A DNA stretch of 28,901 nt from Candidatus Electronema aureum (GCA_004284765.1 NQJD01000031.1:1-28901); one strand, 5' to 3'; positions 1 to 17,800 are shown, counted from the stretch's first letter. The notes: generated by a model not told the origin, from the letters alone. Numbers and translations are program-made.

Positions 1-154
1 ATTACATCGAACTGGCAATACGGGCTTTTCTCCGCATTGAATATCATTGTTTTGTCAAAGGAATTTCTTAGTTCGAGGCAAAGACTGCCATCATCCGTGA
101 CGCTGTTCGGGCGTATTTGACGAAACCAATTTATACGCTTGAGCCTATCAATCT

Positions 155-370
155 TTATGCAACTGCGTAAGTCCTATTCCAGTCAGGATATTCTTTTGCA
201 GCCAGCCCCACGGGGCGTTCTTTGCGCAAGCGCGTCCTTTTCTCTGGCGCAATTGCTTTGATCTCTGCGACCGGCTTGTTACGGCGGCAGATGATCACGG
301 TTTCTCCGGCTTCGGCCTTAGCAAGGGCAGCGGAGAGGTGGCTTTTCATTTCGCTGATGTTGAGCTGCAT
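155..370 (-). CDS. Solo Phd/YefM-family (prevent-host-death-like) type II antitoxin / small DNA-binding protein, 71 aa
   Basis: This lies within track ORF 155..463 (-). I place the start at ATG 370..368 (M32 of the track ORF). It is preceded by AGGAGG (381..376) with a 5-nt spacer, and everything further upstream is CRISPR-repeat and promoter sequence. The product MQLNISEMKSHLSAALAKAEAGETVIICRRNKPVAEIKAI... has the N-terminal pattern typical of Phd/YefM antitoxins (I-x-E-x-K-x-x-L-S ... G-E-x-V-x-I ... K-P-V-A). The stop is TAA at 157..155. Family assignment is from memory of the motif, not from a search. Confidence 0.65.
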   Translation of the reverse strand: MQLNISEMKSHLSAALAKAEAGETVIICRRNKPVAEIKAIAPEKRTRLRKERPVGLAAKEYPDWNRTYAVA

Positions 371-388
371 ACGTTCCTCCTGTAAAAT
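360..388 (+). promoter_or_regulatory. Putative sigma70-type promoter for cas4-cas1-cas2 (TTGAGC-N17-TAAAAT)
   Basis: The -35 is TTGAGC at 360..365, followed by a 17-nt spacer and the -10 TAAAAT at 383..388. The predicted start is near 395-396, 2-3 nt before the solitary repeat. cas4 has no other obvious promoter and no Shine-Dalgarno sequence in 430..480. This is a consensus match only. Confidence 0.3.
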
Positions 389-397
389 GGATTTAAT

Positions 398-429
398 GTC
401 GCCTCCTTCACGGGGGCGTGGATTGAAAC
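398..429 (+). repeat. Solitary (orphan) CRISPR repeat, 32/32 identical to the array repeat and in the same orientation
   Basis: GTCGCCTCCTTCACGGGGGCGTGGATTGAAAC is read directly at 398..429. No second repeat or repeat-like sequence lies within about 35 nt on either side. It sits 51 nt upstream of the cas4 ATG. Confidence 0.95.
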
Positions 430-434
430 CATAC

Positions 435-463
435 ATCATAGATTGCGAGTCCATCCCTGTCAA
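435..463 (-). promoter_or_regulatory. Near-consensus sigma70 promoter driving the antitoxin gene (TTGACA-N17-TATGAT on the minus strand)
   Basis: On the minus strand, TTGACA is at 463..458, followed by a 17-nt spacer (457..441) and TATGAT at 440..435. The predicted start is around 428-432, at the edge of the solitary repeat (429). The 5' UTR would therefore be the antisense of the repeat. Confidence 0.5.
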
Positions 464-480
464 TCAACCTAGAAAATGCC

Positions 481-1110
481 ATGTACAGCGAAGACGACCT
501 CCTGATGATTTCCGCGCTGCAACATCTGTTATTCTGTCCCCGGCAATGTGCCCTTATTCACCTTGAGCAAATCTGGACGGAAAACCGTTTGACTGCTGAA
601 GGGCGACTGATGCACGAGCATGTGCATGAGGCGGGCAGTGATTCCAGAGGCGCGGTGCGGATTGAATACGACATGCCGCTACGTTCCCTGCGGCTGGGGC
701 TTTTAGGCCGGGCAGACGTGGTGGAAATGCAGCGGCAGCCAGATAAGACATGGCAGCCCTTTCCGGTGGAATACAAGCATGGCAAGCCGAAGAAAGACGA
801 CAGCGATTTGGTGCAGCTCTGCGCCCAAGCTCTCTGCTTGGAGGAAATGCTTGGCTGCGCGGTTCCAGCGGGTGCGTTTTATTATGGGGTGAAGAAGCGG
901 CGCACCGAGGTTGCCTTTGATCAGCGGCTGCGGCGAGTCACGGAAGAAGCAGCAGTCCAGCTCCATACGCTGCTTGCTGGCACCATCACACCTGCGCCGG
1001 AATACAACAAACGCTGCGAAAGCTGCTCCCTGATTGACACCTGTCTTCCCCAAACTGCTGGGCGAAGAGGCCGAGTTAGCAATTATATGACAAGGATGAC
1101 GACACTATGA
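481..1110 (+). CDS. cas4: CRISPR-associated exonuclease Cas4 (RecB-like, Fe-S cluster), type I-C style stand-alone Cas4
   Basis: 209 aa. The N-terminus ISALQHLLFCPRQCALIHLEQIW is typical of Cas4. The nuclease motif is D (GRADVV) ... E-x-K (PVEYKHGK). One N-terminal Cys plus the C-terminal C-x2-C-x5-C (CESCSLIDTC) match the 4Fe-4S ligands. Its stop overlaps the cas1 start (ATGA at 1107..1110). Confidence 0.9.
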   Translation: MYSEDDLLMISALQHLLFCPRQCALIHLEQIWTENRLTAEGRLMHEHVHEAGSDSRGAVRIEYDMPLRSLRLGLLGRADVVEMQRQPDKTWQPFPVEYKHGKPKKDDSDLVQLCAQALCLEEMLGCAVPAGAFYYGVKKRRTEVAFDQRLRRVTEEAAVQLHTLLAGTITPAPEYNKRCESCSLIDTCLPQTAGRRGRVSNYMTRMTTL

Positions 1111-2135
1111 AAACGCATCTCAACACCCTGTTTGTAACGACTCAAGGAGCCTATTTAGCCAAAGACGGAGAGACGGTGGCGGTGCGGGTTGAAGGTGAAA
1201 CCAAGCTCCGCCTGCCTGTGCATACCTTGGGCGGGATTGTCTGCTTTGGCAATGTCGGATGCAGCCCCTTTCTCCTTGGCTTTTGCGGCGAGAACAACGT
1301 GGCAGTCAGCTTTCTTGATGAGCATGGCCGCTTTCTGGCGCGGGTGATCGGGCCAGTCTCTGGCAATGTCCTTCTCAGGCGAGAGCAGTACCGCCGTGCC
1401 GATGATCTGGCCTTTTCTGCCCAGATGGCGCGCGCCTTTCTCAGCGGTAAAGTGGGCGGCAGTCGTAACGTGCTTTTGCGCGTGGTGCGCGATCATGGCG
1501 ACAAGGTGGATGTGGAACAGCTCAAGCAAGCCACTGACCGCCTTAGCGCATCGTTGCGGCGGCTTCAGGAAAAGTTGGATTTGGATGCAGTGCGAGGCGT
1601 GGAAGGCGATGCTGCCCATGTCTATTTTCAGCATTTCGATCATCTCATTCTGCGCAACAAAGAGGATTTCTTCTTCCGCGAACGCAGCCGCAGGCCGCCG
1701 CTTGATCGGGTCAACTGCCTGCTCTCGTTCCTTTACACGCTGGTTATGCACGATGTGCGTTCAGCCTTAGAATGCACCGGCCTTGATCCCGCAGTTGGTT
1801 TTCTTCATCGCGACCGACCGGGCCGTCCTGGTTTGGCGTTGGATATGATGGAAGAGTTTAGGCCGTTTGCTGATCGGATCGCCCTGTCGTTGATCAACCT
1901 TGGCCAGCTACAAGGCAAGGATTTCGTCGTTAGCTCCAGCGGCGGGGTACGGATGAAGGACGAGGCAAGGAAAGAGCTATTGACCGCTTATCAGGCGCGC
2001 AAGCAAGACGTGCTGGAACATCCTTTTCTGGGCGAAAAAATGCCGCTCGGTCTCTTCTTTCATACACAAGCCCTGCTCTTGGCCCGCTTCCTACGGGGTG
2101 ATTTAGACGGCTATCCGCCGGTGATGTTTGGATGA
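1107..2135 (+). CDS. cas1: CRISPR-associated integrase/endonuclease Cas1
   Basis: 342 aa. The N-terminus NTLFVTTQGAYLAKDGETVAV and the C-terminal catalytic region GFLHRDRPGRPGLALDMMEEFRP are characteristic of Cas1. It is translationally coupled to cas4. Confidence 0.95.
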   Translation: MKTHLNTLFVTTQGAYLAKDGETVAVRVEGETKLRLPVHTLGGIVCFGNVGCSPFLLGFCGENNVAVSFLDEHGRFLARVIGPVSGNVLLRREQYRRADDLAFSAQMARAFLSGKVGGSRNVLLRVVRDHGDKVDVEQLKQATDRLSASLRRLQEKLDLDAVRGVEGDAAHVYFQHFDHLILRNKEDFFFRERSRRPPLDRVNCLLSFLYTLVMHDVRSALECTGLDPAVGFLHRDRPGRPGLALDMMEEFRPFADRIALSLINLGQLQGKDFVVSSSGGVRMKDEARKELLTAYQARKQDVLEHPFLGEKMPLGLFFHTQALLLARFLRGDLDGYPPVMFG

Positions 2136-2150
2136 AGCCGGAACCAGGCT

Positions 2151-2184
2151 GTCTGTTGACGTTGTCTTAGGCGTGGATTAGCAC
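2151..2184 (+). repeat. Weak repeat-like fragment (psiR1): only the 3' handle part resembles the CRISPR repeat
   Basis: GCGTGGATTAGCAC at 2171..2184 matches the repeat 3' end GCGTGGATTGAAAC at 11/14. GTC at 2151..2153 matches the repeat start. The middle is unrelated and forms no hairpin. TTGACG at 2156..2161 could instead be a -35 box (TTGACG-N17-TAGCAC, with a poor -10). Confidence 0.3.
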
Positions 2185-2193
2185 CGGTTGGAT

Positions 2194-2237
2194 GCAACTC
2201 CCTGAGGTGTTGCTCAGACAAGTCCCCAGGGAGTTGC
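2194..2237 (+). other. Perfect 11-bp inverted repeat (stem-loop) in the cas1-cas2 intergenic region
   Basis: GCAACTCCCTG (2194..2204) is the exact reverse complement of CAGGGAGTTGC (2227..2237), with a 22-nt loop. No T-tract follows, so it is not an obvious intrinsic terminator. Function unknown. Confidence 0.6.
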
Positions 2238-2264
2238 CAAAGCCTGCGCAGAGAAAGAACTCTC

Positions 2265-2299
2265 GTCGCCGCCCTCTTCACGAGGGCGTGGATGGAAAC
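2265..2299 (+). repeat. Degenerate CRISPR repeat (psiR2) 15 nt upstream of the cas2 start codon
   Basis: GTCGCCGCCCTCTTCACGAGGGCGTGGATGGAAAC aligns to the array repeat with a 3-nt insertion and 4 substitutions. The TTCAC loop is identical. The stem is kept as 7 Watson-Crick pairs (2270..2276 with 2282..2288) through compensatory changes. The handle GTGGATGGAAAC differs from GTGGATTGAAAC by one base. Confidence 0.75.
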
Positions 2300-2314
2300 A
2301 GGATGGAAGAATAA

Positions 2315-2605
2315 ATGCTTGTTCTTGTCAGTTACGATGTCAAAACCAGTGATCCCGATGGCCCGAAACGACTGCGGCGAGTTGCCAAAATCTGCCGGGA
2401 TTACGGGCAGAGGGTGCAGTATTCGGTCTTTGAGTGCCTTGTGCCGCCGGATAAATGGGTAGTGATGCGGGCGCGGCTGATTCAGGAGATTGACGAGGAA
2501 AAGGACAGCCTGCGGTTTTATTTTCTCGGTGCCAATTGGAAAAACCGGGTTGAGCATATCGGGGCCAAAGTCGCGATTGACCAAGAAGGGCCGTTGATAG
2601 TATAG
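2315..2605 (+). CDS. cas2: CRISPR-associated endoribonuclease Cas2
   Basis: 96 aa. The N-terminus MLVLVSYDV carries the conserved Asp, and RLRRVAKICRDYGQRVQYSVFEC is the typical Cas2 ferredoxin-fold core. It lies just upstream of the leader and array. Confidence 0.95.
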   Translation: MLVLVSYDVKTSDPDGPKRLRRVAKICRDYGQRVQYSVFECLVPPDKWVVMRARLIQEIDEEKDSLRFYFLGANWKNRVEHIGAKVAIDQEGPLIV

Positions 2606-2809
2606 TTGCGAAATTGTGTTGTCGAGAAGAGAACTACGGGCGGCGCGAACCGCAAGCGAACAGGAAAAGCCGGGAGGTTCGCGGGCCGCGATATAAGGAG
2701 GTGAAAGCTGGAAAAAGCGTGTCACATGTTGGGCGAACGAAACGGAAGAACTATTGTTCGCAAAAATGCAGTAAAATGCCGAATCGCAGCCGTCAGTTGC
2801 GATTCGACA
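2606..2809 (+). promoter_or_regulatory. CRISPR leader (cas2-proximal), containing the presumed array promoter
   Basis: This is 204 bp of non-coding sequence between the cas2 stop and the first repeat. Repeat polarity (3' end ATTGAAAC, as in I-C crRNA 5' handles) makes + the transcribed strand. A candidate -10 TAAAAT is at 2772..2777, but I found no convincing -35. The track ORFs here (2614..2838, 2726..3040) run into the repeats and are not credible. Confidence 0.7.
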
Positions 2810-5800
2810 GTCGCCTCCTTCACGGGGGCGTGGATTGAAACGTCCGTAATTGTCGCGGCGGAAAAATCTGTAGCCGTGTCGCCTCCTTCACGGGGGCGTG
2901 GATTGAAACATCGGCCAAGGACATCGTGCAGGAACTCTGCGACCGTCGCCTCCTTCACGGGGGCGTGGATTGAAACTGGCACGGCGGACAGCACCAGAGA
3001 GTTGACGTTGCGTCGCCTCCTTCACGGGGGCGTGGATTGAAACTTCTTCGTGGCAGGCATACGTGCAGTCATTTCGAGTCGCCTCCTTCACGGGGGCGTG
3101 GATTGAAACTTCAGCAGGTCGCTGCTGTTGAAGATGAGGTACGTCGCCTCCTTCACGGGGGCGTGGATTGAAACACGCGGATCACGCTCGTCGTCATGCC
3201 GAACTTGGTCGCCTCCTTCACGGGGGCGTGGATTGAAACATACTCCAAGAGGTGACAGAATGAGATTTCCCGAAGTCGCCTCCTTCACGGGGGCGTGGAT
3301 TGAAACATTCCACAACTGGCAAGTGAGGTGTGAGAAATCTGTCGCCTCCTTCACGGGGGCGTGGATTGAAACGGTATGCTGTTAGTTACCTGTACGCTTT
3401 TACTTGGTCGCCTCCTTCACGGGGGCGTGGATTGAAACTTGGTTGACTGCTGGGTCGGGGATCAGCACAGACGTCGCCTCCTTCACGGGGGCGTGGATTG
3501 AAACATCCACGCCCTTGTCCAGCACCATGTCCTCGATCGTCGCCTCCTTCACGGGGGCGTGGATTGAAACGTAGCTGATCAATTCTGCCAACTGCCGCGA
3601 CTTGGTCGCCTCCTTCACGGGGGCGTGGATTGAAACACTCTTGCCCGCGCTACGGGCAGGCTCGGTAGCGTCGCCTCCTTCACGGGGGCGTGGATTGAAA
3701 CCTACTTGGGGCAATTAAACAAGCATCTGCCTTTGGTCGCCTCCTTCACGGGGGCGTGGATTGAAACAGTATCGGATGTCGGATAACTCTTGGCGCAGTC
3801 GCCTCCTTCACGGGGGCGTGGATTGAAACTGGTACTAGGTATTGGTTGCGTGCGGATGTAATAGTCGCCTCCTTCACGGGGGCGTGGATTGAAACAGTCT
3901 GTGCGCAATGATCTGATCTCTGCTGACCGTCGCCTCCTTCACGGGGGCGTGGATTGAAACTGCCGGGTTATCCCCCGTGTTTCACTTCGTGCCGTCGCCT
4001 CCTTCACGGGGGCGTGGATTGAAACCTTAGCCGCCGTCCCGCGCGGCCAAGTCTTAGTAGTCGCCTCCTTCACGGGGGCGTGGATTGAAACTAATGATAT
4101 TTTTGCTGCCGGATATATAATATCAGTCGCCTCCTTCACGGGGGCGTGGATTGAAACGGAAAACCTCTAAAGAGCTGAATCTCGAATTTGGTCGCCTCCT
4201 TCACGGGGGCGTGGATTGAAACCCAGCAGTTGTATCAGGCAATGACATGTCACCAAGTCGCCTCCTTCACGGGGGCGTGGATTGAAACTCCGGAATCCGC
4301 TGCCCCTACTGACCCGAAAAACGTCGCCTCCTTCACGGGGGCGTGGATTGAAACACACTGAAACGCACGAGGGCGACGAAATGCTGTACGTCGCCTCCTT
4401 CACGGGGGCGTGGATTGAAACCGAAGACAGACGATCAAGTCAGGATAGAGATCAAGTCGCCTCCTTCACGGGGGCGTGGATTGAAACCTCGTTGCCCTGC
4501 GCTTCCTGACCGGAGGGGATGTCGCCTCCTTCACGGGGGCGTGGATTGAAACACCGCCTCGTTAGCCTGCTCAATGACGGCGTGCTTGTCGCCTCCTTCA
4601 CGGGGGCGTGGATTGAAACTGGAAGAAGCTGGGAACAGGTATATTAGGGACAAGGGTCGCCTCCTTCACGGGGGCGTGGATTGAAACTGGTCAGCATTAG
4701 GATTGCCGTTATAAGTACCAGTCGCCTCCTTCACGGGGGCGTGGATTGAAACTTACCGCCAATGCCGAGGAACTTAACAGCGAGGAGTCGCCTCCTTCAC
4801 GGGGGCGTGGATTGAAACTTCCTGTAGCTGTAGTTCCCAAGCCGCCTCGCCGGTCGCCTCCTTCACGGGGGCGTGGATTGAAACAGCTCGGGACCAAGCT
4901 GTTTCTGTTGCGTTTAAGTCGCCTCCTTCACGGGGGCGTGGATTGAAACGTTAGAGGATGCCAATGCTCGTGCGCTGCCAATTGTCGCCTCCTTCACGGG
5001 GGCGTGGATTGAAACCCCGGCTGCCGGTTGCTTACTTTGACCACCAATTGTCGCCTCCTTCACGGGGGCGTGGATTGAAACAATTGAGCGATACTCATTA
5101 TTGCATTCTATGCCGGTCGCCTCCTTCACGGGGGCGTGGATTGAAACGTACTTAAAATTCTCCCACTCTAATATATGTAGGTCGCCTCCTTCACGGGGGC
5201 GTGGATTGAAACAGCAGGTCTTGTAAAAACGAGCTGGCGCGGTGCGGTCGCCTCCTTCACGGGGGCGTGGATTGAAACACCAGCCTGCTTGATGCCCTCT
5301 GCTCGCACCTTGTCGCCTCCTTCACGGGGGCGTGGATTGAAACCTTTTGCGCGGCCTCGGCGCGGGCCTTGGCGGCGGCAAGTCGCCTCCTTCACGGGGG
5401 CGTGGATTGAAACATCGCCTCGTTAGCCTGCTCAATGACGGTGTACGGTCGCCTCCTTCACGGGGGCGTGGATTGAAACACGGTTTCATTGCCCGTGCGA
5501 CTGGCGACCTCAAGCGTCGCCTCCTTCACGGGGGCGTGGATTGAAACCGCTGTGTGATGTTTTGCTTGCCATACACCATTGGTCGCCTCCTTCACGGGGG
5601 CGTGGATTGAAACAGTTCGCCACAGTTCAAAATTCCGGCAGGCACAAGTCGCCTCCTTCACGGGGGCGTGGATTGAAACTTGTCCCGCACACCCCAGACC
5701 TTGGCCCGACATAGACGGTCGCCTCCTTCACGGGGGCGTGGATTGAAACGGAATCTCCTATTGCCCATCCGAGCACACAGCGGTCGCCTCCTTCACGGGG

Positions 5801-8800
5801 GCGTGGATTGAAACGTACAGGCCGTTCATCGCCAGCGCAGCGGTGTATGGTCGCCTCCTTCACGGGGGCGTGGATTGAAACTGATAGAACAAAATGAAAT
5901 CCTTGCCCCAGACCGTCGCCTCCTTCACGGGGGCGTGGATTGAAACGGCCTTGAATTTAGCCTCAGCCTCCTTCGCCGCTGTCGCCTCCTTCACGGGGGC
6001 GTGGATTGAAACCAAATCGTCCCAGTCCATCTGGTTTGTTGCCCAGTCCGGTCGCCTCCTTCACGGGGGCGTGGATTGAAACTGTGTCAATAATAATCCG
6101 ATCACTCCCGGTTATGTCCGTCGCCTCCTTCACGGGGGCGTGGATTGAAACGTGCATCCGGGGAGCCAAGTACGGATGGCATCGTCGCCTCCTTCACGGG
6201 GGCGTGGATTGAAACATCGGCTCGTCAGCCTGCTCGATGGCGTGCGCCCTCGTCGCCTCCTTCACGGGGGCGTGGATTGAAACAGGTCAATATGGATCAG
6301 CTTAGGATCGGGTGAACCGTCGCCTCCTTCACGGGGGCGTGGATTGAAACCCACTGCTAAACTCCATGATTTATATATGAAGTCGTCGCCTCCTTCACGG
6401 GGGCGTGGATTGAAACAGGAGTGCTGTACTTAGGATTTGCCGGTTTAATGTCGCCTCCTTCACGGGGGCGTGGATTGAAACTTCTGATCCCGCCGCAGCT
6501 TCCGGCCCGGTCGCGTCGCCTCCTTCACGGGGGCGTGGATTGAAACCTGTTCCAGATGCTGTCCAATTTAATACCGGCTTGTCGCCTCCTTCACGGGGGC
6601 GTGGATTGAAACCTACAGCATGGGTTGACCCAGATACTGGCTGCGAGTCGCCTCCTTCACGGGGGCGTGGATTGAAACATGGTCGTCGTGGGCAGGCACC
6701 CGGTGAGGTATGTCGCCTCCTTCACGGGGGCGTGGATTGAAACAAGCTGCATTGTTGCTGATCAGCCTGCTGATTGCGTCGCCTCCTTCACGGGGGCGTG
6801 GATTGAAACTGCTGCGTTTAATGCTGGCGAGTGGAGTTATCATTGTCGCCTCCTTCACGGGGGCGTGGATTGAAACAAGCTCCTATGATGCAACACCATG
6901 CAGCATGTACCAAGTCGCCTCCTTCACGGGGGCGTGGATTGAAACTGATCCAGCTGATAACTCTGACGTTGGCTGGCTCGTCGCCTCCTTCACGGGGGCG
7001 TGGATTGAAACTTTCCAAACACAAAAAAAAACAGAAGCAAGAGAGGTCGCCTCCTTCACGGGGGCGTGGATTGAAACAGCTTGCGTGACTGGGTAAACAT
7101 CTGTAGCCACGGTCGCCTCCTTCACGGGGGCGTGGATTGAAACAAAGCTGGTGCAGCTGTAGCAGCAGAGGCTTGTGTCGCCTCCTTCACGGGGGCGTGG
7201 ATTGAAACGCGTCTGGTACGGTGGTTCAGATGTGCAGACGCGTCGCCTCCTTCACGGGGGCGTGGATTGAAACCTCAAGGAAAGCCCCATGTGGAGTCCT
7301 TTAACCGGTCGCCTCCTTCACGGGGGCGTGGATTGAAACACCGCCACGGGCATTTGATCGGATTGCATGATATCGTCGCCTCCTTCACGGGGGCGTGGAT
7401 TGAAACTTAGAATGCCAGAACGAGCGGTCAAACGCGGCTGGTCGCCTCCTTCACGGGGGCGTGGATTGAAACCGGGTTGATCAGACCACCTACGAAGGTG
7501 CGATCTAGTCGCCTCCTTCACGGGGGCGTGGATTGAAACACTTGAAAGAGCTTGACCGGTACGCATCTGGAAGTCGCCTCCTTCACGGGGGCGTGGATTG
7601 AAACTCTGTAATCTGGGGAAGGATTAAACAAAAAAGTCGCCTCCTTCACGGGGGCGTGGATTGAAACCTGCCGCGCCTTTGACATGGCGATAGATGGTGG
7701 GGTCGCCTCCTTCACGGGGGCGTGGATTGAAACCTCAGTCTCAAAGCCAGCCACAAGTCGATTACTGTCGCCTCCTTCACGGGGGCGTGGATTGAAACCT
7801 TCGTCTCCTTGTCCTGTGCCCGCAGTGCAGCTTCGTCGCCTCCTTCACGGGGGCGTGGATTGAAACCTCGCGAAAACAGTGCGGCGGACGTGCGGATATA
7901 TGTCGCCTCCTTCACGGGGGCGTGGATTGAAACTGTGGTCGACCCGAAACTGCGAAGTTGCGCTTGGTCGCCTCCTTCACGGGGGCGTGGATTGAAACCC
8001 GTCCGGGACAGATTGCAAACTGGGCAACAAATGTCGCCTCCTTCACGGGGGCGTGGATTGAAACATTCAGCAGGGCCGCTGCCTCATCTAACCGCCCGGT
8101 CGCCTCCTTCACGGGGGCGTGGATTGAAACCGCGACGCGAACCTCACGCCGTCGAGCGATGATAGGTCGCCTCCTTCACGGGGGCGTGGATTGAAACTCG
8201 CAATCTCTTGACATAGTTGGCGACGGTGTGTTTGTCGCCTCCTTCACGGGGGCGTGGATTGAAACAGGTGCTTCTGCGCAGCCTCGATATGCGGATTGTC
8301 GTCGCCTCCTTCACGGGGGCGTGGATTGAAACACTGCCCGCCGCCATAGGCAGGGCAAGCGGCGGAGTCGCCTCCTTCACGGGGGCGTGGATTGAAACCA
8401 GTCGCCTGCCTTGGACAGCCGCGCGGCTTCCGTCGCCTCCTTCACGGGGGCGTGGATTGAAACGCTAATAAAGATGAAGAAATACGGCATGTCGCTGGGT
8501 CGCCTCCTTCACGGGGGCGTGGATTGAAACGTTCGCTTAATGCCATTATAGCCCCCATTATGCTGTCGCCTCCTTCACGGGGGCGTGGATTGAAACACTG
8601 GATGCTGCAATACTGGCCGTCGCTTTGGCGAGTCGCCTCCTTCACGGGGGCGTGGATTGAAACACGTGCTCGGCAGTCACCTCTTTGACGCGGCTGTACG
8701 TCGCCTCCTTCACGGGGGCGTGGATTGAAACGCGCTGGCTGTTCTGCTGCCTCATTCCGTTTTTGTCGCCTCCTTCACGGGGGCGTGGATTGAAACCTAC

Positions 8801-11800
8801 GCTGCTGCCGCCAAAGCAGCAGCAGCGGCGTCGCCTCCTTCACGGGGGCGTGGATTGAAACCAGTCGAATCAGATAGCCAGCCTTCACTTTGCGCGTCGC
8901 CTCCTTCACGGGGGCGTGGATTGAAACACGGACGGGCGCCGCAGGCAACGCGGGCTGCTTCGTCGCCTCCTTCACGGGGGCGTGGATTGAAACATTGGCT
9001 TTGATCGCAAGATACCTTTCCCGCAGGTCGCCTCCTTCACGGGGGCGTGGATTGAAACCTCCGCCTTGCGCAGGGATAACATCCAGCTCTTGTCGCCTCC
9101 TTCACGGGGGCGTGGATTGAAACGGAAAATCGTCTCAATCCTGTGCGGCTGCGTCTTGGTCGCCTCCTTCACGGGGGCGTGGATTGAAACGTCCATACTT
9201 ACCTCTCTCTGCTGATTGACCTCTGTCGCCTCCTTCACGGGGGCGTGGATTGAAACATCGCCGGTGCCAAGAATGGAGTTTTTGACGTCGCCTCCTTCAC
9301 GGGGGCGTGGATTGAAACAGTATCCCCAGCGGGATTGCAGGCGGCTGCTGCCAGTCGCCTCCTTCACGGGGGCGTGGATTGAAACCCCCGTTTGGCTGCG
9401 AACGAGGGAACAGGCTAAAACGTCGCCTCCTTCACGGGGGCGTGGATTGAAACTGGGGCCACACGATGCGCTGTGGCGTAGTAGTAGGTCGCCTCCTTCA
9501 CGGGGGCGTGGATTGAAACTGAGTCCAAATGGACTGTCAGCGGTGCGCTGCTCCGTCGCCTCCTTCACGGGGGCGTGGATTGAAACGTACGGCAAGATTG
9601 TCGCGGTCAAAGAGACTGTGCGTCGCCTCCTTCACGGGGGCGTGGATTGAAACCGCTCAACTTCAGCGCGGTTGTTATTGACTGACCGTCGCCTCCTTCA
9701 CGGGGGCGTGGATTGAAACTGGGCTATCCGCGCTGAACCGGCCTTAATCTCTGTCGCCTCCTTCACGGGGGCGTGGATTGAAACAGACCAGCAGCGAGGG
9801 ATTGCTTTGAAGAAACGGTCGCCTCCTTCACGGGGGCGTGGATTGAAACCTCCGGCAAGGAGGGAGGATATGCGGGATGCCACGTCGCCTCCTTCACGGG
9901 GGCGTGGATTGAAACACCATTGAGCACTGTCTTGGTGATCAGCACGGCGAGTCGCCTCCTTCACGGGGGCGTGGATTGAAACACCATCAGCGACATATCA
10001 CAGGTTTGTGCGGTGTGTCGCCTCCTTCACGGGGGCGTGGATTGAAACGAAGAGTCTGCCGCTAAGTCTGGGGTGATATTAGTCGCCTCCTTCACGGGGG
10101 CGTGGATTGAAACAGTTCGCCGTCCGCTCATCTTCAACCTCCTTGAGCGTCGCCTCCTTCACGGGGGCGTGGATTGAAACTGTTCTAATCGGAAGAGCGC
10201 GCGCATTGCCTTCCAGTCGCCTCCTTCACGGGGGCGTGGATTGAAACCTGCGCAACAGATGAGTGTGCGGGTGTCTCGGAGGTCGCCTCCTTCACGGGGG
10301 CGTGGATTGAAACCATCTATTCGCCCTCCTTCGGCAGCCGGGTGCGCGTCGCCTCCTTCACGGGGGCGTGGATTGAAACGATGATTAATAATCTTGATTG
10401 GCTGCCTTCCTACGTCGCCTCCTTCACGGGGGCGTGGATTGAAACACCTTTTCTATCGATACCAGCTAACCAATTGGCTGTCGCCTCCTTCACGGGGGCG
10501 TGGATTGAAACCAAATGTGGACGATACCAAGCGAGAGCGGCAACGGTCGCCTCCTTCACGGGGGCGTGGATTGAAACTGATCCAGCTGATAATTCCGATG
10601 TTGGTTGGCTGTCGCCTCCTTCACGGGGGCGTGGATTGAAACATCCATATCACCTCCGCGCATAAGCAGCTTTGCCGTCGCCTCCTTCACGGGGGCGTGG
10701 ATTGAAACACTGGACGGTCACGCTAAAGAGGAGGACGGCAAAGTCGCCTCCTTCACGGGGGCGTGGATTGAAACTTGGTCGGAGCACTGATCAGGGGGAG
10801 GATTGCAGGTCGCCTCCTTCACGGGGGCGTGGATTGAAACCCGCCGCTGCCGTCCTCCTCAACCCGGAACAGCAGTCGCCTCCTTCACGGGGGCGTGGAT
10901 TGAAACAACGTTAATCCTACTTGAGGGCATTATGTTTAGGCGTCGCCTCCTTCACGGGGGCGTGGATTGAAACACTCGACTGGTTGATCAACGGGAAAGA
11001 ATAAAAAGTCGCCTCCTTCACGGGGGCGTGGATTGAAACAAATCCCCGCTGCGGTCGATTTTGACTGAGGGCGGTGGTCGCCTCCTTCACGGGGGCGTGG
11101 ATTGAAACGTTCTGCCGCCGACAATCTGGTCGCATTATCGCGTCGCCTCCTTCACGGGGGCGTGGATTGAAACTGTCTCCTCGTTGGTATTGCTGTTTTT
11201 AATCTTGTCGCCTCCTTCACGGGGGCGTGGATTGAAACAAAGTGCCCCTGACTTCCTCCGATCCCGGCAAGGGTCGCCTCCTTCACGGGGGCGTGGATTG
11301 AAACTTTCCAGACGTGGCAGGATTTTGGGGTTCGTTTCGTGTCGCCTCCTTCACGGGGGCGTGGATTGAAACAGAGCGGAAGTTTATCAGGATACTCAAG
11401 CGTAGGTCGCCTCCTTCACGGGGGCGTGGATTGAAACAGAACAAATATTCTTCATATTTTCATTGTACATGTCGCCTCCTTCACGGGGGCGTGGATTGAA
11501 ACATTAGCAGGAATTATTAAGGAACCCTGTTTAAAGGTCGCCTCCTTCACGGGGGCGTGGATTGAAACTTTATGGCAGCATCATTGTGTCGTTCTAATGC
11601 GGTCGCCTCCTTCACGGGGGCGTGGATTGAAACTACAATTTCGACGAGTTGGTGATTGGCAATGCAGGTCGCCTCCTTCACGGGGGCGTGGATTGAAACT
11701 GCCATTTTCGTCACTCCGGGAACTCTGTTGCTGGTCGCCTCCTTCACGGGGGCGTGGATTGAAACATCAACCGGGCTGTATCAACCAGCGGCTTTGCGCT

Positions 11801-14800
11801 CGTCGCCTCCTTCACGGGGGCGTGGATTGAAACGTAGCTGCCTGCCGCGCCGTTGACGTGGCGGTAGGTCGCCTCCTTCACGGGGGCGTGGATTGAAACA
11901 CGTTCCAGCCCCCTGTCGCGGGGGCTGGATGCGGTCGCCTCCTTCACGGGGGCGTGGATTGAAACTCATAGCTGTCCGCGTCCTGCACAATCCGCGTAAA
12001 GTCGCCTCCTTCACGGGGGCGTGGATTGAAACTGTATCTGCTGCTGCCAGCTCGCCGCCACAGCAGTCGCCTCCTTCACGGGGGCGTGGATTGAAACTGC
12101 TGATTGATCTCTGCGCCTCTGTCAACTAACCATGTCGCCTCCTTCACGGGGGCGTGGATTGAAACGGCAGCCGGGTGCGCACCCGGCCCGCCGGGTGAAG
12201 TCGCCTCCTTCACGGGGGCGTGGATTGAAACCCCAGCGATTCGGGCGCGGAACAACACCACTTTGGCGTCGCCTCCTTCACGGGGGCGTGGATTGAAACT
12301 TTGCCATCTTGGTCAACGGATCAGGTAGGTCAAGTCGCCTCCTTCACGGGGGCGTGGATTGAAACCCGGCAATTGGCGCGGCCTGCTCCAGCAGCACATG
12401 TCGCCTCCTTCACGGGGGCGTGGATTGAAACCTATCTCAATTCCCGTTTACTGCGCCGCGATAGAGTCGCCTCCTTCACGGGGGCGTGGATTGAAACTGA
12501 TAGACCAAAAATACCGGCAGCTATTGGCCCGTCGCCTCCTTCACGGGGGCGTGGATTGAAACCAAAATGCTGATAATTTTGACCCAGCACAAGTTGCGGT
12601 CGCCTCCTTCACGGGGGCGTGGATTGAAACGGGCCGCCCGCAGAAGTGGGCCAAATTGAAGAAGGTCGCCTCCTTCACGGGGGCGTGGATTGAAACATCA
12701 CCACGCCAACAAGCTGGCTCGCATCAGCGGGGTCGCCTCCTTCACGGGGGCGTGGATTGAAACACCAGCGGCAGCGGAGATGCAGCGTGGGAGCTGGTCG
12801 CCTCCTTCACGGGGGCGTGGATTGAAACCGGTTGCGGAAGAAATCCAGAGAGCAACCGCGCTGGTCGCCTCCTTCACGGGGGCGTGGATTGAAACGTATG
12901 CCCGCCCATAGCAAGCCAGCCGGGTGCCCAGTCGCCTCCTTCACGGGGGCGTGGATTGAAACAGGGGCGGCGGTATCGGTTTCACGTCCTCCTGTGTCGC
13001 CTCCTTCACGGGGGCGTGGATTGAAACATCAGCGCACCGGCCCCGGCAGACTAATTGGAGGTCGCCTCCTTCACGGGGGCGTGGATTGAAACACCGGCGA
13101 GCAGGTCAAGGACTGGGTGGAGCAGGTCGCCTCCTTCACGGGGGCGTGGATTGAAACATGCCACCATGCCCCGCACCCTACTAAAACTCACGTCGCCTCC
13201 TTCACGGGGGCGTGGATTGAAACAACCATCCTTGGAATCATCTGGCGGAGCTGACCAGTCGCCTCCTTCACGGGGGCGTGGATTGAAACAGGGGATGAGG
13301 TGGTGAAGTACCTCGCCGCAGAGGTCGCCTCCTTCACGGGGGCGTGGATTGAAACCGCTCGGCCGCGCGGGGCTGTGGACTGTCAAAGGTCGCCTCCTTC
13401 ACGGGGGCGTGGATTGAAACCCGCCAGCCACGTTGTGAGCTATACGCTGACCAGTCGCCTCCTTCACGGGGGCGTGGATTGAAACCCGCCAGCCACGTTG
13501 TGAGCTATACGCTGACCAGTCGCCTCCTTCACGGGGGCGTGGATTGAAACTGCGGGTGTTGATGTGCAATCTATTATCCCAAAAAGTCGCCTCCTTCACG
13601 GGGGCGTGGATTGAAACTCGTGATAATCGCTTCAAGCCGCTGGGCCGTGGTCGTCGCCTCCTTCACGGGGGCGTGGATTGAAACAGCCAGCTCTTCGATA
13701 TGCCGAGATTTTTCGCTGGTCGCCTCCTTCACGGGGGCGTGGATTGAAACTCAAAAACGCAGTACTGCCGAACACTACAGAGAGTCGCCTCCTTCACGGG
13801 GGCGTGGATTGAAACAGCTTGCCGCCCGCGTTGTCACCGGCAATGAGATGGTCGCCTCCTTCACGGGGGCGTGGATTGAAACGTGGATGAGGCCGCCTGC
13901 ACCAGCGGCGGCCTCTGGTCGCCTCCTTCACGGGGGCGTGGATTGAAACATCGGATGGCGGGCTATGTGGTTTTTCGCCAGCAGTCGCCTCCTTCACGGG
14001 GGCGTGGATTGAAACCGCGCTGGAACAGGCCATGAACGCGCTGTCCGGTGGTCGCCTCCTTCACGGGGGCGTGGATTGAAACGCCCCCGCTTTGGCCTTC
14101 GCCCGCTGCACCGCCGTCGCCTCCTTCACGGGGGCGTGGATTGAAACTTCGTCCCGCTGCTCGGCCACAACAGCAGCGGAAAGTCGCCTCCTTCACGGGG
14201 GCGTGGATTGAAACAAAATTTGGCGCAGAAGTTCGGCGCAAATTGTGCGTCGCCTCCTTCACGGGGGCGTGGATTGAAACCCGTGCGCATTGAAATCGTG
14301 GTGGCTGAATCATGTCGCCTCCTTCACGGGGGCGTGGATTGAAACTTTATCAGGGCGCATTTTATGGCGACGTGTACGGGTCGCCTCCTTCACGGGGGCG
14401 TGGATTGAAACATGCGCTGGGCACCGCCTCCGCCCAGCGCATGAAGTCGCCTCCTTCACGGGGGCGTGGATTGAAACACAATCCACATCCGCCACGCTGG
14501 GATATTGGCCGCAGTCGCCTCCTTCACGGGGGCGTGGATTGAAACGGCTCCTGCCTTTGGATTTGGAAATTCTATGCCGTCGCCTCCTTCACGGGGGCGT
14601 GGATTGAAACACGGCGGCGGATTTGGCATCTGGGCTGCCCCTGGTCGCCTCCTTCACGGGGGCGTGGATTGAAACCAGTTGTTTTTTTTCATTGCCCGCC
14701 GCAGCCGGTGTCGCCTCCTTCACGGGGGCGTGGATTGAAACACGGGCCGCGTCAGCACGCACTTGCGCGGCTGCGTCGCCTCCTTCACGGGGGCGTGGAT

Positions 14801-17800
14801 TGAAACGCCAAGAGCCGCGATGTCGCGGTTGGCAGTTAGGTCGCCTCCTTCACGGGGGCGTGGATTGAAACAGTGAGCTGGCAGATGTATGCGTATCCAC
14901 CTGCGTCGCCTCCTTCACGGGGGCGTGGATTGAAACTGCTGCCGTCGCACTGACCGGCAGCAGAAGAAGAACGTCGCCTCCTTCACGGGGGCGTGGATTG
15001 AAACTTCCGCTCTGCACCGCAGCAGCAGCACCTCAACGTCGCCTCCTTCACGGGGGCGTGGATTGAAACTCGTTTTTCGGAACGATGACTCCTTGCGGCC
15101 AGCGTCGCCTCCTTCACGGGGGCGTGGATTGAAACCCTGCGCTGCATGTCACCATGCCGCCGCCGAACAGTCGCCTCCTTCACGGGGGCGTGGATTGAAA
15201 CATCAACGAATATCCAATCGTATTCGCTATCTTCGTCGCCTCCTTCACGGGGGCGTGGATTGAAACTGTCCGTGAGCATCGCTGGGTACGCAAATCTGCT
15301 GTCGCCTCCTTCACGGGGGCGTGGATTGAAACTAATGGGAAAAGCGCGCGCGTTGTCCTCTAATGAAGGTCGCCTCCTTCACGGGGGCGTGGATTGAAAC
15401 GCCAGTGAAATGCTTGGAGCACATCACCCGTTTGTCGCCTCCTTCACGGGGGCGTGGATTGAAACCCGCGCTGCTGCCGTACCAGCGCGGGTGGATTGGT
15501 CGCCTCCTTCACGGGGGCGTGGATTGAAACGGACGGCTCGGCTGGGACAAGACGCAGCCGCACCGGTCGCCTCCTTCACGGGGGCGTGGATTGAAACGTG
15601 TTGGACTGTATGTTGTCTGCTCTGGCTGTCGTCGCCTCCTTCACGGGGGCGTGGATTGAAACTGGTCGAGGAAAAACGGCCTTCCGCCAGCCCGATGTCG
15701 CCTCCTTCACGGGGGCGTGGATTGAAACTTGATAATAAGAAATAAAGTGTGGTCACTTGTTGTCGCCTCCTTCACGGGGGCGTGGATTGAAACGTGGGGA
15801 CGTACACCGTCATTGAGCAGGCTGACGAGTCGCCTCCTTCACGGGGGCGTGGATTGAAACAGGCAATTTGCAGCCTCCTGCCGTACAGGAAACGTCGCCT
15901 CCTTCACGGGGGCGTGGATTGAAACACCTGCCGCCAGCACCTGCTCTGCGTCTGCTGCGCGTCGCCTCCTTCACGGGGGCGTGGATTGAAACGTGCATGT
16001 GCGGATGCCACAAACCGCTGTTTTGAGTCGCCTCCTTCACGGGGGCGTGGATTGAAACCTGCTGAAGGGAGCGACGGCGGTACTGGACAGAGGTCGCCTC
16101 CTTCACGGGGGCGTGGATTGAAACGTACCATCTATCGCCACGTCAAAGGCGCGGCAGGGTCGCCTCCTTCACGGGGGCGTGGATTGAAACTTTTTCCTGC
16201 TGAAAAGGATTAGGCCCCAGACAGGTCGCCTCCTTCACGGGGGCGTGGATTGAAACGGGATCAGCCCCTGCCCGGATCAGGTGATGGATGCGGTCGCCTC
16301 CTTCACGGGGGCGTGGATTGAAACCTCTCATAGGCACCGTTTAGCTGCGTGACGCAGGTCGCCTCCTTCACGGGGGCGTGGATTGAAACGATTCCGGTAC
16401 AGACGCTGGCTACCGAGGTCAGTCGCCTCCTTCACGGGGGCGTGGATTGAAACTCCTCTTCCTGCTCCTACTGCTGTCCCTTTTGCGTCGCCTCCTTCAC
16501 GGGGGCGTGGATTGAAACGTCTTCGCGCACTTTTGCTCCCGCTTTAGTGAAAGTCGCCTCCTTCACGGGGGCGTGGATTGAAACTTTATACTAATCAAGC
16601 ATTTGCCTTTGGCGTTAGTCGCCTCCTTCACGGGGGCGTGGATTGAAACTGCCAAGTCCGGTAAGGAACCTGAGCAAGGTCGCCTCCTTCACGGGGGCGT
16701 GGATTGAAACATCGGAATCCAAGCAATCCCAAGCAGGAAGCGTACAGTCGCCTCCTTCACGGGGGCGTGGATTGAAACCTGTAGAAGTATCAGTACATTG
16801 TTTAGCACCGAGTCGCCTCCTTCACGGGGGCGTGGATTGAAACCTTTCACGCCGGGCAGCAGCATGAGCAAACGGCGGTCGCCTCCTTCACGGGGGCGTG
16901 GATTGAAACCTTGGCGTGGCCGTCCAAGGAGAAGGCATCCAAGTCGCCTCCTTCACGGGGGCGTGGATTGAAACCCTGCGATGGTTTTGAGATAATCATT
17001 AGATATAGGTCGCCTCCTTCACGGGGGCGTGGATTGAAACATGAAACTCGTCGCCTGATCTTCGACAAGGATGGTCGCCTCCTTCACGGGGGCGTGGATT
17101 GAAACAGATGAAGAGGAGGAAAAAAGCGATTTGAACGCAGGTCGCCTCCTTCACGGGGGCGTGGATTGAAACCGGTCAGGTGTCTGCGAAGGTCGCCGCC
17201 GCTGTTGGTCGCCTCCTTCACGGGGGCGTGGATTGAAACAGCACCCAGCGAACGCACTCGTCATAGGCCCTTAGTCGCCTCCTTCACGGGGGCGTGGATT
17301 GAAACTTGGTGGAAATCATGACCGCGCCAGTGCAACAGAGTCGCCTCCTTCACGGGGGCGTGGATTGAAACTGGAAAACACCGAGGAAAGTTTCGTTCTG
17401 GAAGAGTCGCCTCCTTCACGGGGGCGTGGATTGAAACAACAGGTAGCGGCGGCTGAAGATGAGGTACGTCTCGTCGCCTCCTTCACGGGGGCGTGGATTG
17501 AAACGCACATATAATCTGAGGGTGTCATATTCAACGCCGTCGCCTCCTTCACGGGGGCGTGGATTGAAACGTAATCCTCGCGTCCGTCGGTTGCTGTATG
17601 CCCGTCGCCTCCTTCACGGGGGCGTGGATTGAAACGTCCCCGTCAAAATCGAAATCACAGTCTTTAATATGTCGCCTCCTTCACGGGGGCGTGGATTGAA
17701 ACTCGTCTCTCAGCGTGGATCCAAAACTGGTGGCAGTCGCCTCCTTCACGGGGGCGTGGATTGAAACCTCCTCACGCAATCCTGATGTTGACCTTCAGCA

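Follow-up and report, generated by a model that had tools for sequence, protein, structure and literature searches.

Where have the effector genes of this type I-C CRISPR locus gone, and does the single perfect repeat that stands upstream of its cas4 gene record their departure? The window, by which we mean the whole 28,901-nucleotide stretch of DNA analysed here, corresponds to about 310165..339065, reversed, of OW818638.1, the closed chromosome (2,938,053 bp) of Candidatus Electronema aureum GS. A first-pass annotation made from the sequence had described an adaptation-only locus lying between two direct repeats, and had suggested recombination with a second array, or an integration that duplicated a repeat, as the origin of this arrangement.

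What the locus retains and what it lacks

The right-hand part of the locus carries the following features.

481..1110, plus strand: cas4 (TIGR00372, 146 bits, cutoff 65)
1107..2135, plus strand: cas1 of type I-C, Cas1c (TIGR03640, 506 bits, cutoff 385)
2194..2237, plus strand: hairpin in the cas1-cas2 gap, with an 11-bp perfect stem (GCAACTCCCTG / CAGGGAGTTGC)
2265..2299, plus strand: degenerate repeat (psiR), GTCGCCGCCCTCTTCACGAGGGCGTGGATGGAAAC, 15 nt upstream of cas2, with a hairpin of -16.4 kcal/mol
2315..2605, plus strand: cas2 (TIGR01573, 70 bits, cutoff 24.5)
2606..2809, plus strand: CRISPR leader, with a -10-like motif TAAAAT at 2771..2776
2810..28767, plus strand: CRISPR array of 394 repeats and 393 spacers of 29-38 nt

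Membership of type I-C follows from a cas1 that passes the curated Cas1c cutoff, is flanked by cas4 and cas2 and has the array adjacent. The cas4 product is an exact match to CAK8712374.1 from Ca. Electronema aureum. The 32-nt array repeat (GTCGCCTCCTTCACGGGGGCGTGGATTGAAAC) has a hairpin and ends in ATTGAAAC; sequences within three mismatches of it occur 395 times in the window, compared with an expectation of 0 from 100 shuffles. The leader is found in its usual position, immediately 5′ of array repeat R1 (2810..2841), and is homologous to that of Ca. Electronema sp. PJ. From cas2 through the leader to the first repeats, window positions 2315..2910 are 81% identical to 7394..7998 of the related locus L003. 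The array is unusually long and its repeats are nearly perfectly homogeneous.

None of cas3, cas5c, cas8c and cas7c, all of which are present in relatives, is found at the locus. The upstream 8.9 kb is free of any cas gene and hosts Lon, an integrase, BrnT/BrnA, an IS30-like remnant and an IS transposase. Searches of a protein collection with a relative's proteins recorded no Electronema-type Cas8c (at least 78% identity) or Cas7c (at least 85%) for chromosome OW818638.1, while the Cas4, Cas1 and Cas2 of this chromosome, our positive control, were found in the same collection. Absence is thus judged from protein-collection searches and cluster membership, which would miss pseudogenes and are blind to a divergent I-C effector that belongs to a lower-identity cluster without being its representative. 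The adaptation-only description is borne out by the effector-free 8.9 kb and by the missing cognate Cas8c and Cas7c, and the effector genes are apparently gone from the genome as well as from the locus. An intact I-C operon just past the left edge of the window was looked for, and there is none. The left edge of the window is not a contig end, and the chromosome continues beyond it.

The solitary repeat and the IS junction

The left end of the window carries a further set of features.

1..176, plus strand: right end of an IS, with the last 71 nt of a DDE transposase at 1..71 and the right inverted repeat CAACTGCGTAAGTCCTA at 160..176
155..370, minus strand: phd, a truncated gene for a PhdYeFM-type antitoxin (TIGR01552, 17.5 bits, below the cutoff of 20.8; PF02604 recorded for the gene call)
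360..388, plus strand: predicted sigma-70 promoter of cas4-cas1-cas2 (TTGAGC, 17 nt, TAAAAT; 9/12 consensus)
398..429, plus strand: solitary repeat unit between phd and cas4, matching the array repeat at 32/32 positions (0 mismatches), in array orientation
435..463, minus strand: predicted sigma-70 promoter of phd (TTGACA, 17 nt, TATGAT; 11/12 consensus; inferred start ~428)

The solitary repeat had been read correctly, in both its identity and its orientation. It folds into a 7-bp hairpin (-12.4 kcal/mol). Its nearest downstream repeat-like match is the element at 2265..2299, about 1.8 kb off, and no second repeat-like sequence lies 20-60 bp downstream, hence this is not a mini-array. Judged by its sequence, it is a standalone repeat unit (SRU), an already described class.

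Alignments with the related loci L010, L011, L013 and L014 show the repeat as a net insertion of 27-28 bp, and these relatives, which represent three independent lineages (L010, L011 and L013/L014), do not have it. Both of its borders are collinear with L010, with 87% identity over 1.5 kb and the repeat as the sole gap. No remnant is seen at the site in L011 and L013; L010 has TCTGTCCCACA there, which is readable as a 28-nt deletion leaving GTC...C. The direction of this indel, insertion or deletion, is not certain from the alignments. The DNA on both sides of the repeat matches relatives with complete loci, which argues for an insertion rather than a recombination scar.

The repeat lies between the face-to-face predicted core promoters of phd and cas4, and also between the two transcription starts predicted for them. 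The cas4 promoter sequence is also present in L010, with an inferred transcription start at ~395, and the -35 box TTGACA of phd is conserved in L010, L011 and L013. If these promoters, which are consensus matches, and the starts deduced from them are correct, then both mRNAs would begin with the repeat, in the sense orientation for cas4 and antisense for phd. A 10-mer shared by 380..389 and 2769..2778 had been noticed previously by eye. The match exists, yet it is no evidence of homology; at both sites it corresponds to a -10-like hexamer, TAAAAT, of which only the copy at 383..388 is called within a promoter.

The opposite-strand antitoxin gene reported upstream of cas4 is present and Phd-like. 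It is ancestral, since relatives with complete loci carry cas7, a mini-array, fic, pin(-), phd(-) and cas4. In the window the last seven codons of phd and its stop (155..176) are IS sequence; the protein ends in EYPDW followed by the IS-encoded NRTYAVA and stop, whereas its counterpart in L011 ends in YPDWKLGDEFLEPLPDDILAYFNGEKE and stop. Window position 177 is precisely where BLAST homology to L011, L013 and L014 sets in, which places the synteny break at 176/177, 220 bp left of the solitary repeat.

The IS is 1,058 bp long, with 17-nt inverted repeats at 8013-8029 and 9054-9070 of L001 (94% complementary, 1,024 nt apart; L001 position 8895 is window position 1), and its transposase gene (L001 8054..8965) has matches to PF13546 and PF01609. 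Its ends are set by the inverted repeat and the homology break, not by a second IS copy. No target-site duplication is seen between the left flank, ...AACTATGG, and the right flank, TTCCAGTC..., for these IS ends, which are not independently confirmed; a simple insertion would be expected to leave one, and its absence is in keeping with a rearranged junction. On its left side the IS abuts the IS30-like transposase remnant, which is frameshifted.

Relatives, repeat-like elements and a probable history

The gene order cas7, fic, pin(-), phd(-), cas4 is found in L010, L013 and L014, and fic, phd(-), cas4 in L011. In relatives with complete loci a mini-array, that is, two repeat-like sequences around a spacer of 20-60 bp, sits between cas7 and fic; mini-arrays occur in L006, L009, L010 and L013. 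Other arrangements are also seen. L021 and L022 show the canonical compact I-C order. L005 is an effector-only contig, in which a near-perfect repeat after fic is followed by unrelated genes. In L011 a repeat, 21 nt and a second repeat unit replace the 3′ end of cas1 through to the 5′ half of cas2, and L006 has its array inverted with respect to the cas genes.

At other sites in this I-C clade, standalone repeats follow cas7, precede cas2, lie within the leader or stand upstream of cas3, in many cases next to toxin-antitoxin (TA) genes. The repeat-like elements that close the effector operon are conserved among relatives, and the older elements of the clade have diverged 10-30% from the array. 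The window has one of its own before cas2, the degenerate repeat at 2265..2299, which was overlooked previously. L003, L006 and L009 have repeat-like elements in the same gap, and the psiR hairpin is kept, with one compensatory change (C-G to U-A) and one change from wobble to Watson-Crick pairing. A partial repeat 3′ half, GGCGTGGATTAGCAC, lies at 2170..2184, just 5′ of the hairpin in this gap. The fold of 2180..2320 reaches -55.2 kcal/mol (z = -3.58), and none of 200 shuffles was as stable. In a crude scan, ungapped and over retrieved DNA only, the 36 nt after each repeat element of the window had no target above background with a TTC PAM in GS or related loci, and the mini-array spacers of relatives had no partly complementary, PAM-adjacent target within their own loci.

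We consider it probable that the type I-C locus of GS decayed at the IS junction, and that the solitary repeat arrived as a separate small insertion. The ancestral order would have been cas3, (TA), cas5c, cas8c, cas7c, mini-array, fic, pin(-), phd(-), cas4, cas1, a repeat-like element with or without TA, cas2, leader and array. Today the 3′ end of phd is occupied by the IS, and the rest of phd, pin, fic and cas7c to cas3 are gone beyond it; an IS-mediated deletion or rearrangement would account for this loss. We favour deletion over relocation, as the searches recorded no cognate Cas8c or Cas7c for the chromosome. The solitary repeat would be a small, probably recent event, in which one array unit was copied between the phd and cas4 promoters.

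In a genome with Cas5c, the I-C pre-crRNA endonuclease, such a repeat would be bound and cut by this enzyme at the very start of the adaptation mRNA. This would couple the expression of cas4-cas1-cas2 to effector abundance, or else titrate Cas5c. Since GS has no Cas5c, its solitary repeat is most likely just a 5′ stem-loop, and probably inert. With Cas4, Cas1 and Cas2 intact, naive spacer uptake may go on. For the 393 spacers, however, neither processing nor interference would be possible. Recombination between the two 32-bp repeats, as suggested previously, could in principle excise 430..2841.

A broader idea, which we regard as speculative and rather unlikely, is that the repeat-like elements of cable-bacterial I-C loci (after cas7, before cas4/fic and before cas2) are Cas5c/Cascade sites through which nearby toxins (Fic, PIN, ParE) and adaptation genes are expressed according to how much effector is present. 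This would make them a protein-toxin, possibly post-transcriptional, CreTA/CreR analogue for type I-C. The GS deletion would then have been survived because pin and fic were lost together with cas3 to cas7, the deletion stopping inside the antitoxin, and the perfect repeat at the start of cas4 would be the newest control site.

Four other explanations compete with decay at the IS and a separate insertion. In the first, the locus is split: an IS-mediated inversion or translocation has moved the effector module elsewhere in GS, and the solitary repeat, as a functional Cas5c/Cascade site, either controls the adaptation operon or sequesters Cas proteins, as do CreR, crRNA-like RNAs and Racr. The homogeneous array and the intact cas4, cas1 and cas2 are as expected of a system in use, the perfect repeat stands at a predicted transcription start, repeat-like elements at the effector-operon end are conserved in relatives, and L005 has its effector apart from an adaptation module. 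However, the 2.94-Mb chromosome has no recorded Electronema-type Cas8c or Cas7c, there is no second repeat within 60 bp to form a mini-array, and the 36 nt that follow the repeat have no partly complementary target with a TTC PAM in GS or related loci. We find this explanation doubtful.

About equally doubtful is a repeat (or a small array since reduced to a single unit) that is older than the GS lineage and was lost in relatives, with GTC...C as its remnant in L010. Here L010 reads ...ATTTATCTGTCCCACACATC and GS reads ...ATTTAATGTC, 28 nt, CCATACATC, and removing the 28 internal nucleotides from GS nearly gives L010. Yet the repeat is missing from three independent lineages, in L011 and L013 without a remnant, and its 32/32 identity to the array contrasts with the 10-30% divergence of older elements.

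The recombination scar proposed by the first-pass annotation, together with its variant of a repeat-duplicating integration, either of which would have removed or relocated the effectors, now seems very improbable. The layout of repeat, 2,380 bp and repeat is real, and rearrangement junctions in relatives do fall at repeats (L005, L011, L006). However, cas4 to leader is not an inserted 'spacer', because the leader beside R1 is in its normal place and homologous to the PJ leader. Synteny with L010 runs through both borders of 398..429 and breaks only at the IS end, and the flanks are collinear with complete loci that have no repeat (L010, L011 and L013/L014). A scar would require L010, L011 and L013 to be secondary restorations, which is implausible. 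Finally, we give almost no credence to an artefact of long-read assembly or polishing that misplaced a repeat, for which there is nothing direct beyond the existence of noisy long-read arrays in public data (L019), and against which stand a clean 32/32 copy within unique, well-conserved flanks and protein records of identical Cas4 and Cas1 from three other contigs and an older draft (TAA74302-74304).

Comparison with known systems

SRUs and mini-arrays inside CRISPR-cas loci have been described by Shmakov et al. 2023 (bioRxiv 10.1101/2023.03.03.530964; later NAR), with cargo examples mainly from type I-D and conserved SRUs mainly from V-A, and with the suggestion that SRUs contribute to recombination; a term search of the preprint's main text gave no hit for I-C. 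Like these SRUs, the GS element is a single array-identical intergenic repeat outside the array, without a downstream partner, and related cable-bacterial loci have mini-arrays beside TA 'cargo' in variable hotspots. Unlike the published examples, it lies between two face-to-face predicted promoters in a locus without an effector.

A second comparison is with CreTA and CreR, Cascade-repressed toxin-antitoxin modules and crRNA-like RNAs that regulate Cas genes (Li et al. 2021; bioRxiv 10.1101/2023.03.10.532045). In CreA and CreR a pair of degenerate repeats frames a spacer with partial complementarity to a PAM-bearing promoter. The likeness lies in degenerate repeats within cas operons near toxin genes (fic, pin and parE in relatives), which raises the idea of Cascade binding that controls a neighbouring gene. 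The element in the window differs in being a single perfect repeat with no PAM-adjacent partial target found. The toxins of relatives, unlike those of CreTA, are proteins rather than RNAs, and none is left in the window, only the truncated phd antitoxin. Racr, the RNA anti-CRISPRs (PMC10651486), are solitary repeat units on phages and plasmids. The GS repeat resembles them as a solitary, probably transcribed repeat that could bind Cas5- or Cas6-type proteins. However, its flanks are the conserved phd-cas4 region of the host and not a mobile element, and a search of a viral contig collection with the repeat gave no match.

With canonical type I-C (Dvulg) the locus shares Cas1c, Cas4, Cas2, a 32-nt hairpin repeat, and a leader and array 3′ of cas2; it differs in having no cas3, cas5c, cas8c or cas7c. 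IS-mediated decay yields partial or orphan CRISPR loci. As in such loci, synteny here is lost exactly at an IS end, and the IS30-like remnant, integrase and BrnTA fill the surroundings. In contrast to typical cases, a full adaptation module survives with a very long homogeneous array, and the edge of the deletion falls just past two toxin genes that are known from relatives. The GS locus is a case of ordinary genome decay, and its solitary repeat is a further SRU of the described kind.

The locus and the search for its effector genes

The window is part of OW818638.1, the closed 2,938,053-bp chromosome of the freshwater cable bacterium Candidatus Electronema aureum GS, and the contig continues beyond its left edge. 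In the window lie the adaptation module and the array of a type I-C system, and no effector genes. The first-pass annotation described a solitary repeat, then cas4, cas1, cas2 and a leader, then the array, and this layout stands on an exact 32-nt match and on profile matches:

155..370, opposite strand, Phd/YefM-type antitoxin ORF (phd)
398..429, forward strand, solitary repeat GTCGCCTCCTTCACGGGGGCGTGGATTGAAAC, 32 nt, 0 mismatches to the array repeat
481..1110, cas4 (TIGR00372, 146 bits)
1107..2135, cas1, type I-C Cas1c (TIGR03640, 506 bits against a cutoff of 385)
2315..2605, cas2 (TIGR01573, 70 bits)
204 bp directly after cas2, leader
2810..28767, CRISPR array of 394 repeats and 393 spacers of 29-38 nt

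All three adaptation genes are intact. The control for the repeat search, a shuffled sequence, gave 0 matches. Rfam returned only CRISPR-DR9 on the window, below threshold and on one array repeat.

The 8.9 kb upstream of the window contain no cas genes; they encode a Lon protease, a phage-type integrase, BrnT/BrnA, small ORFs, a frameshifted IS30-like transposase remnant and a DDE transposase. In L001, the DNA that includes this upstream side (window position 1 is L001 8895), the integrase, BrnT/BrnA, the IS30-like transposase and, abutting the latter, a 1,058-bp insertion sequence (IS) form a cluster of mobile-element and defence remnants at 4372..9070.

In order to look for the effector elsewhere, a protein collection, rather than the chromosome itself, was queried with two proteins from Ca. 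Electronema sp. PJ, Cas8c and Cas7c; the repeat of PJ is the same as that of GS. Each Cas8c cluster at 78% identity or above and each Cas7c cluster at 85% or above was either a singleton on a short contig or was checked through its member list. None among those clusters was recorded on the 2.94-Mb GS chromosome, a result that pseudogenes, or divergent copies in lower-identity clusters, would escape. As a positive control, the window's Cas4, Cas1 and Cas2 are recorded on this chromosome in the same collection. The GS genome probably has no functional cognate effector, and the earlier view that the array is uncoupled from its effector is upheld by both the upstream DNA and the protein collection. 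We found no mention of the GS locus in publications on the CRISPR systems of cable bacteria or of Electronema.

The insertion sequence junction and the origin of the solitary repeat

Complete loci from relatives came from Ca. Electronema sp. PJ (L003), the MAGs L008 and L013, and the metagenome or SRA contigs L005, L006/L007, L009, L010, L011 and L014. The gene order in L010, L013 and L014 is cas5c, cas8c, cas7c, mini-array, fic, pin (opposite strand), phd (opposite strand), cas4, cas1, and that in L011 is fic, phd (opposite strand), cas4. Since all four carry it before cas4, the opposite-strand antitoxin is, on this synteny, an ancestral trait. No spacers are common to GS and L003/L004, L013 or L002. 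Among the closest Cas4 relatives, P0241 has 94% identity, and P0313 is N-terminally cut and so has no upstream DNA. In L021 and L022 (Logan SRR26046684 and SRR26046685) a Cas4 86% identical to that of GS sits inside a compact canonical I-C operon, whose Cas8c is much shorter (567 aa) and which leaves no space for repeat-like elements; judging from these two contigs, the modules for adaptation and for the effector have evidently been shuffled between lineages.

Homology of the window to L011, L013 and L014 starts exactly at window 177. Positions 160..176 form one arm, the right, of a terminal inverted repeat of 17 nt; its partner lies 1,024 nt leftward, and the DDE transposase gene is enclosed between the two. 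In phd, IS sequence has taken the place of the final ~22 codons: the window reads ...EYPDW up to the junction and NRTYAVA and a stop after it, against ...YPDWKLGDEFLEPLPDDILAYFNGEKE and a stop in L011. The flanks of the IS carry no target-site duplication and its left flank is another IS remnant, not the remainder of phd; this junction is therefore the product of a rearrangement and not of a simple insertion.

The effector genes appear to have been lost at the IS and not at the solitary repeat, because the flanks of the repeat stay collinear with the relatives and homology breaks at 176/177. An IS-mediated deletion would have removed pin, fic and the genes from cas7 to cas3. The deletion boundary falls just beyond two toxin genes that relatives carry; this position is what a Cascade-dependent addiction model predicts for a survivable loss of the effector, and is suggestive only.

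Recombination between repeats had been put forward as the origin of this layout. The idea is reasonable for the clade, because repeat-bordered rearrangements are known in L005, L011 and L006. Such an event is not the cause of the GS junction: the solitary repeat is no recombination scar, as synteny with relatives crosses both of its borders and breaks instead at the IS end. Both flanks align collinearly with L010 (87% identity over 1.5 kb), and the repeat is the sole gap (GS, ...AAAATGGATTTAAT, then the repeat GTCGCC...GAAAC, then CATACATCATAG...; L010, ...AAAATGGATTTATCTGTCCCACACATCATAG...). L011, L013 and L014 likewise have no repeat at the phd-cas4 site. On these alignments, the solitary repeat is a net insertion of 27-28 bp in an intergenic region of 83 bp that is conserved in other respects. 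It matches the array at 32/32 positions and is absent in three independent lineages, which speaks for a recent gain by the GS lineage. The alternative polarity would be the loss of 28 nt from L010, with GTC...C left behind. Under a recent gain, one array repeat would have been copied into the promoter region, possibly through a template switch that used GTC and C as microhomologies already in place.

A 24-mer of the conserved right flank had 0 matches in metagenome contigs, a collection that evidently does not include the sample of L010. The repeat core was found there at five loci, none informative on the phd-cas4 site: four unrelated arrays and L016 (Ga0190284_1001502), a housekeeping contig without array or cas genes. 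L016 carries two solitary I-C repeats 1.87 kb apart (1964..1993 and 3832..3862), one degenerate and one matching at 31/32 nt, and one copy lies 5' of a DUF1571 gene. These could be an off-locus regulatory use or a chance retention.

Promoters, the cas1-cas2 gap and array details

Two predicted promoters face each other across the phd-cas4 gap:

360..388, forward strand, predicted cas4 promoter from a consensus scan (TTGAGC, 17 nt, TAAAAT)
463..435, reverse strand, predicted phd promoter (TTGACA, 17 nt, TATGAT; 11/12 consensus matches)

The -35 element of the latter is kept in relatives. Inferred transcription starts at ~395 and ~428 bracket the solitary repeat, and the cas4-cas1-cas2 mRNA would thus open with the repeat hairpin (predicted fold, -12.4 kcal/mol) and the phd mRNA with the repeat antisense. 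A 10-mer shared by 380..389 and 2769..2778, which the first-pass annotation had pointed out, is present at both sites. At each it contains the -10-like hexamer TAAAAT, which is called in a promoter at the first site only. It is no sign of homology.

Cas5c is the I-C pre-crRNA endonuclease and recognises the repeat hairpin. For this reason the solitary repeat would, in an effector-proficient cell, give the adaptation mRNA a 5'-terminal site for Cas5c; in GS the 5' stem-loop that it would form is most likely inert. It seems improbable that we are looking at an I-C, protein-toxin analogue in cable bacteria of CreTA, the Cascade-repressed toxin-antitoxin (TA) system, and of CreR.

The cas1-cas2 gap (window 2136..2314, 179 bp) contains three elements:

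2170..2184, partial repeat, 3' half GGCGTGGATTAGCAC
2194..2237, strong hairpin with an 11-bp stem (z = -3.6)
2265..2299, degenerate repeat, 15 nt upstream of cas2

The last, overlooked earlier, keeps its 7-bp hairpin via one compensatory change, from C-G to U-A. The GS gap may be a cargo-less remnant, because relatives fill the same gap with tandem repeats, mini-arrays or a RelB/ParE cassette.

Within the array, four spacers occur twice (161/162, 279/281, 330/333 and 338/339, at 13421/13486, 21188/21320, 24547/24744 and 25071/25138), with the copies adjacent or nearly so. This suggests local duplication by repeat slippage, or repeated acquisition. The penultimate repeat (28669..28700) has a single G-to-A change (GCGTAGATT), the sole variant in the array stretches read; the last repeat is perfect, therefore there is no degenerate terminal repeat. 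The first two spacers had 0 exact matches in viral contigs.

Repeat-like elements across the clade and known repeat classes

Repeat-like elements recur across the related loci as follows:

just after the cas7 stop codon, repeat-like element: L003, L005, L006, L009
after cas7, two-unit mini-array: L010, L013
after fic, repeat-like element: L005
cas1-cas2 gap, repeat-like element: L003, L006, L009, GS
cas1-cas2 gap, promoter and mini-array ahead of a RelB/ParE-type cassette: L006, L009
inside the leader, perfect repeat copy: L013
upstream of cas3, repeat-like element: L008

By this comparison of loci they belong to the regular make-up of the I-C clade. Their stems differ in loop length and fall out of register in a MAFFT alignment. 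TA modules (VapBC-like, Phd/ParE, Fic, PIN/Phd and RelB/ParE) occupy the cas3/cas5, cas7/cas4 and cas1/cas2 junctions.

Individual loci vary widely. L005 (Logan SRR23086395_50357) is effector-only, the mirror image of the GS locus: cas3, VapBC-like, Phd/ParE, cas5c, cas8c, cas7c, a degenerate repeat, fic, a near-perfect repeat at 13729..13761 (region 12879..13761), then unrelated opposite-strand CCP_MauG and Band_7, so that its fic is bracketed by two repeat-like elements. At 1934..2017 of L011 (JGI 3300040794) a unit of repeat, 21 nt and repeat stands where the counterpart of window 1848..2464 would be, from the 3' end of cas1 across the gap to the 5' half of cas2; its two junctions coincide exactly with repeat borders within coding sequence, and it reflects either a genuine deletion bordered by repeats or an error of metagenome assembly. 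L013 (GCA_052784985.1) shares the 32-nt repeat of GS, and its effector module is intact; its leader, between cas2 and the array, holds a perfect solitary repeat (7646..7677) and a near-perfect one (7800..7827). L006 (JGI 3300037310; 12930..13060 and 13920..18000) is an I-C locus in a plasmid-like context (ParA, Rep3), with its main array inverted relative to the cas genes and, between cas1 and cas2, a good promoter (TTGCCT, 17 nt, TACAAT), a two-repeat mini-array and RelB/ParE. The mini-array spacers of L006 and L009 have the conserved 3' end CCGGCAACAT in common. Long tandem ~60-nt units (GAGGCATTCGCTGTTTCAAACGAGGCGTTTGA...) fill the cas1-cas2 gap of L003 (6940..7300) and L009 (13860..14040).

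Other classes of repeat element fit less well. An origin in Racr, an RNA anti-CRISPR, or in phage can be set aside, as the repeat core had 0 matches in viral contigs. For CreR/CreA-like targeting by Cas-regulating crRNA-like RNAs, the 36 nt after each repeat element were scanned, ungapped, against GS and all related loci. Only background matches (~20-22/36) were returned, none with a TTC PAM, and the same holds for the relatives' mini-array spacers against their own loci. The solitary repeat is not part of a mini-array.

These results show that a 393-spacer CRISPR memory can be severed from its effector by ordinary IS activity, and that a layout of repeat, genes and repeat, however striking, need not mark the site of rearrangement. 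Ca. Electronema aureum GS is available as a single-strain enrichment with published transcriptomes (PRJNA575166 and PRJNA575156, cited in PMC13047784). It is therefore usable for asking whether an effector-less adaptation module still acquires spacers, and whether unprocessed pre-crRNAs and repeat-led mRNAs are made.

Shmakov et al. (bioRxiv 10.1101/2023.03.03.530964) describe standalone repeat units and mini-arrays that are enriched in intergenic regions of cas loci, often with TA cargo as a neighbour at variable hotspots, and that may contribute to recombination. The repeat-like elements of this I-C clade match that class, and the clade thereby joins the loci with standalone repeats and mini-arrays beside TA cargo; the solitary repeat itself is a standalone repeat unit. 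The GS locus is an IS-decayed partial CRISPR locus with a standalone repeat, and both kinds are already known.
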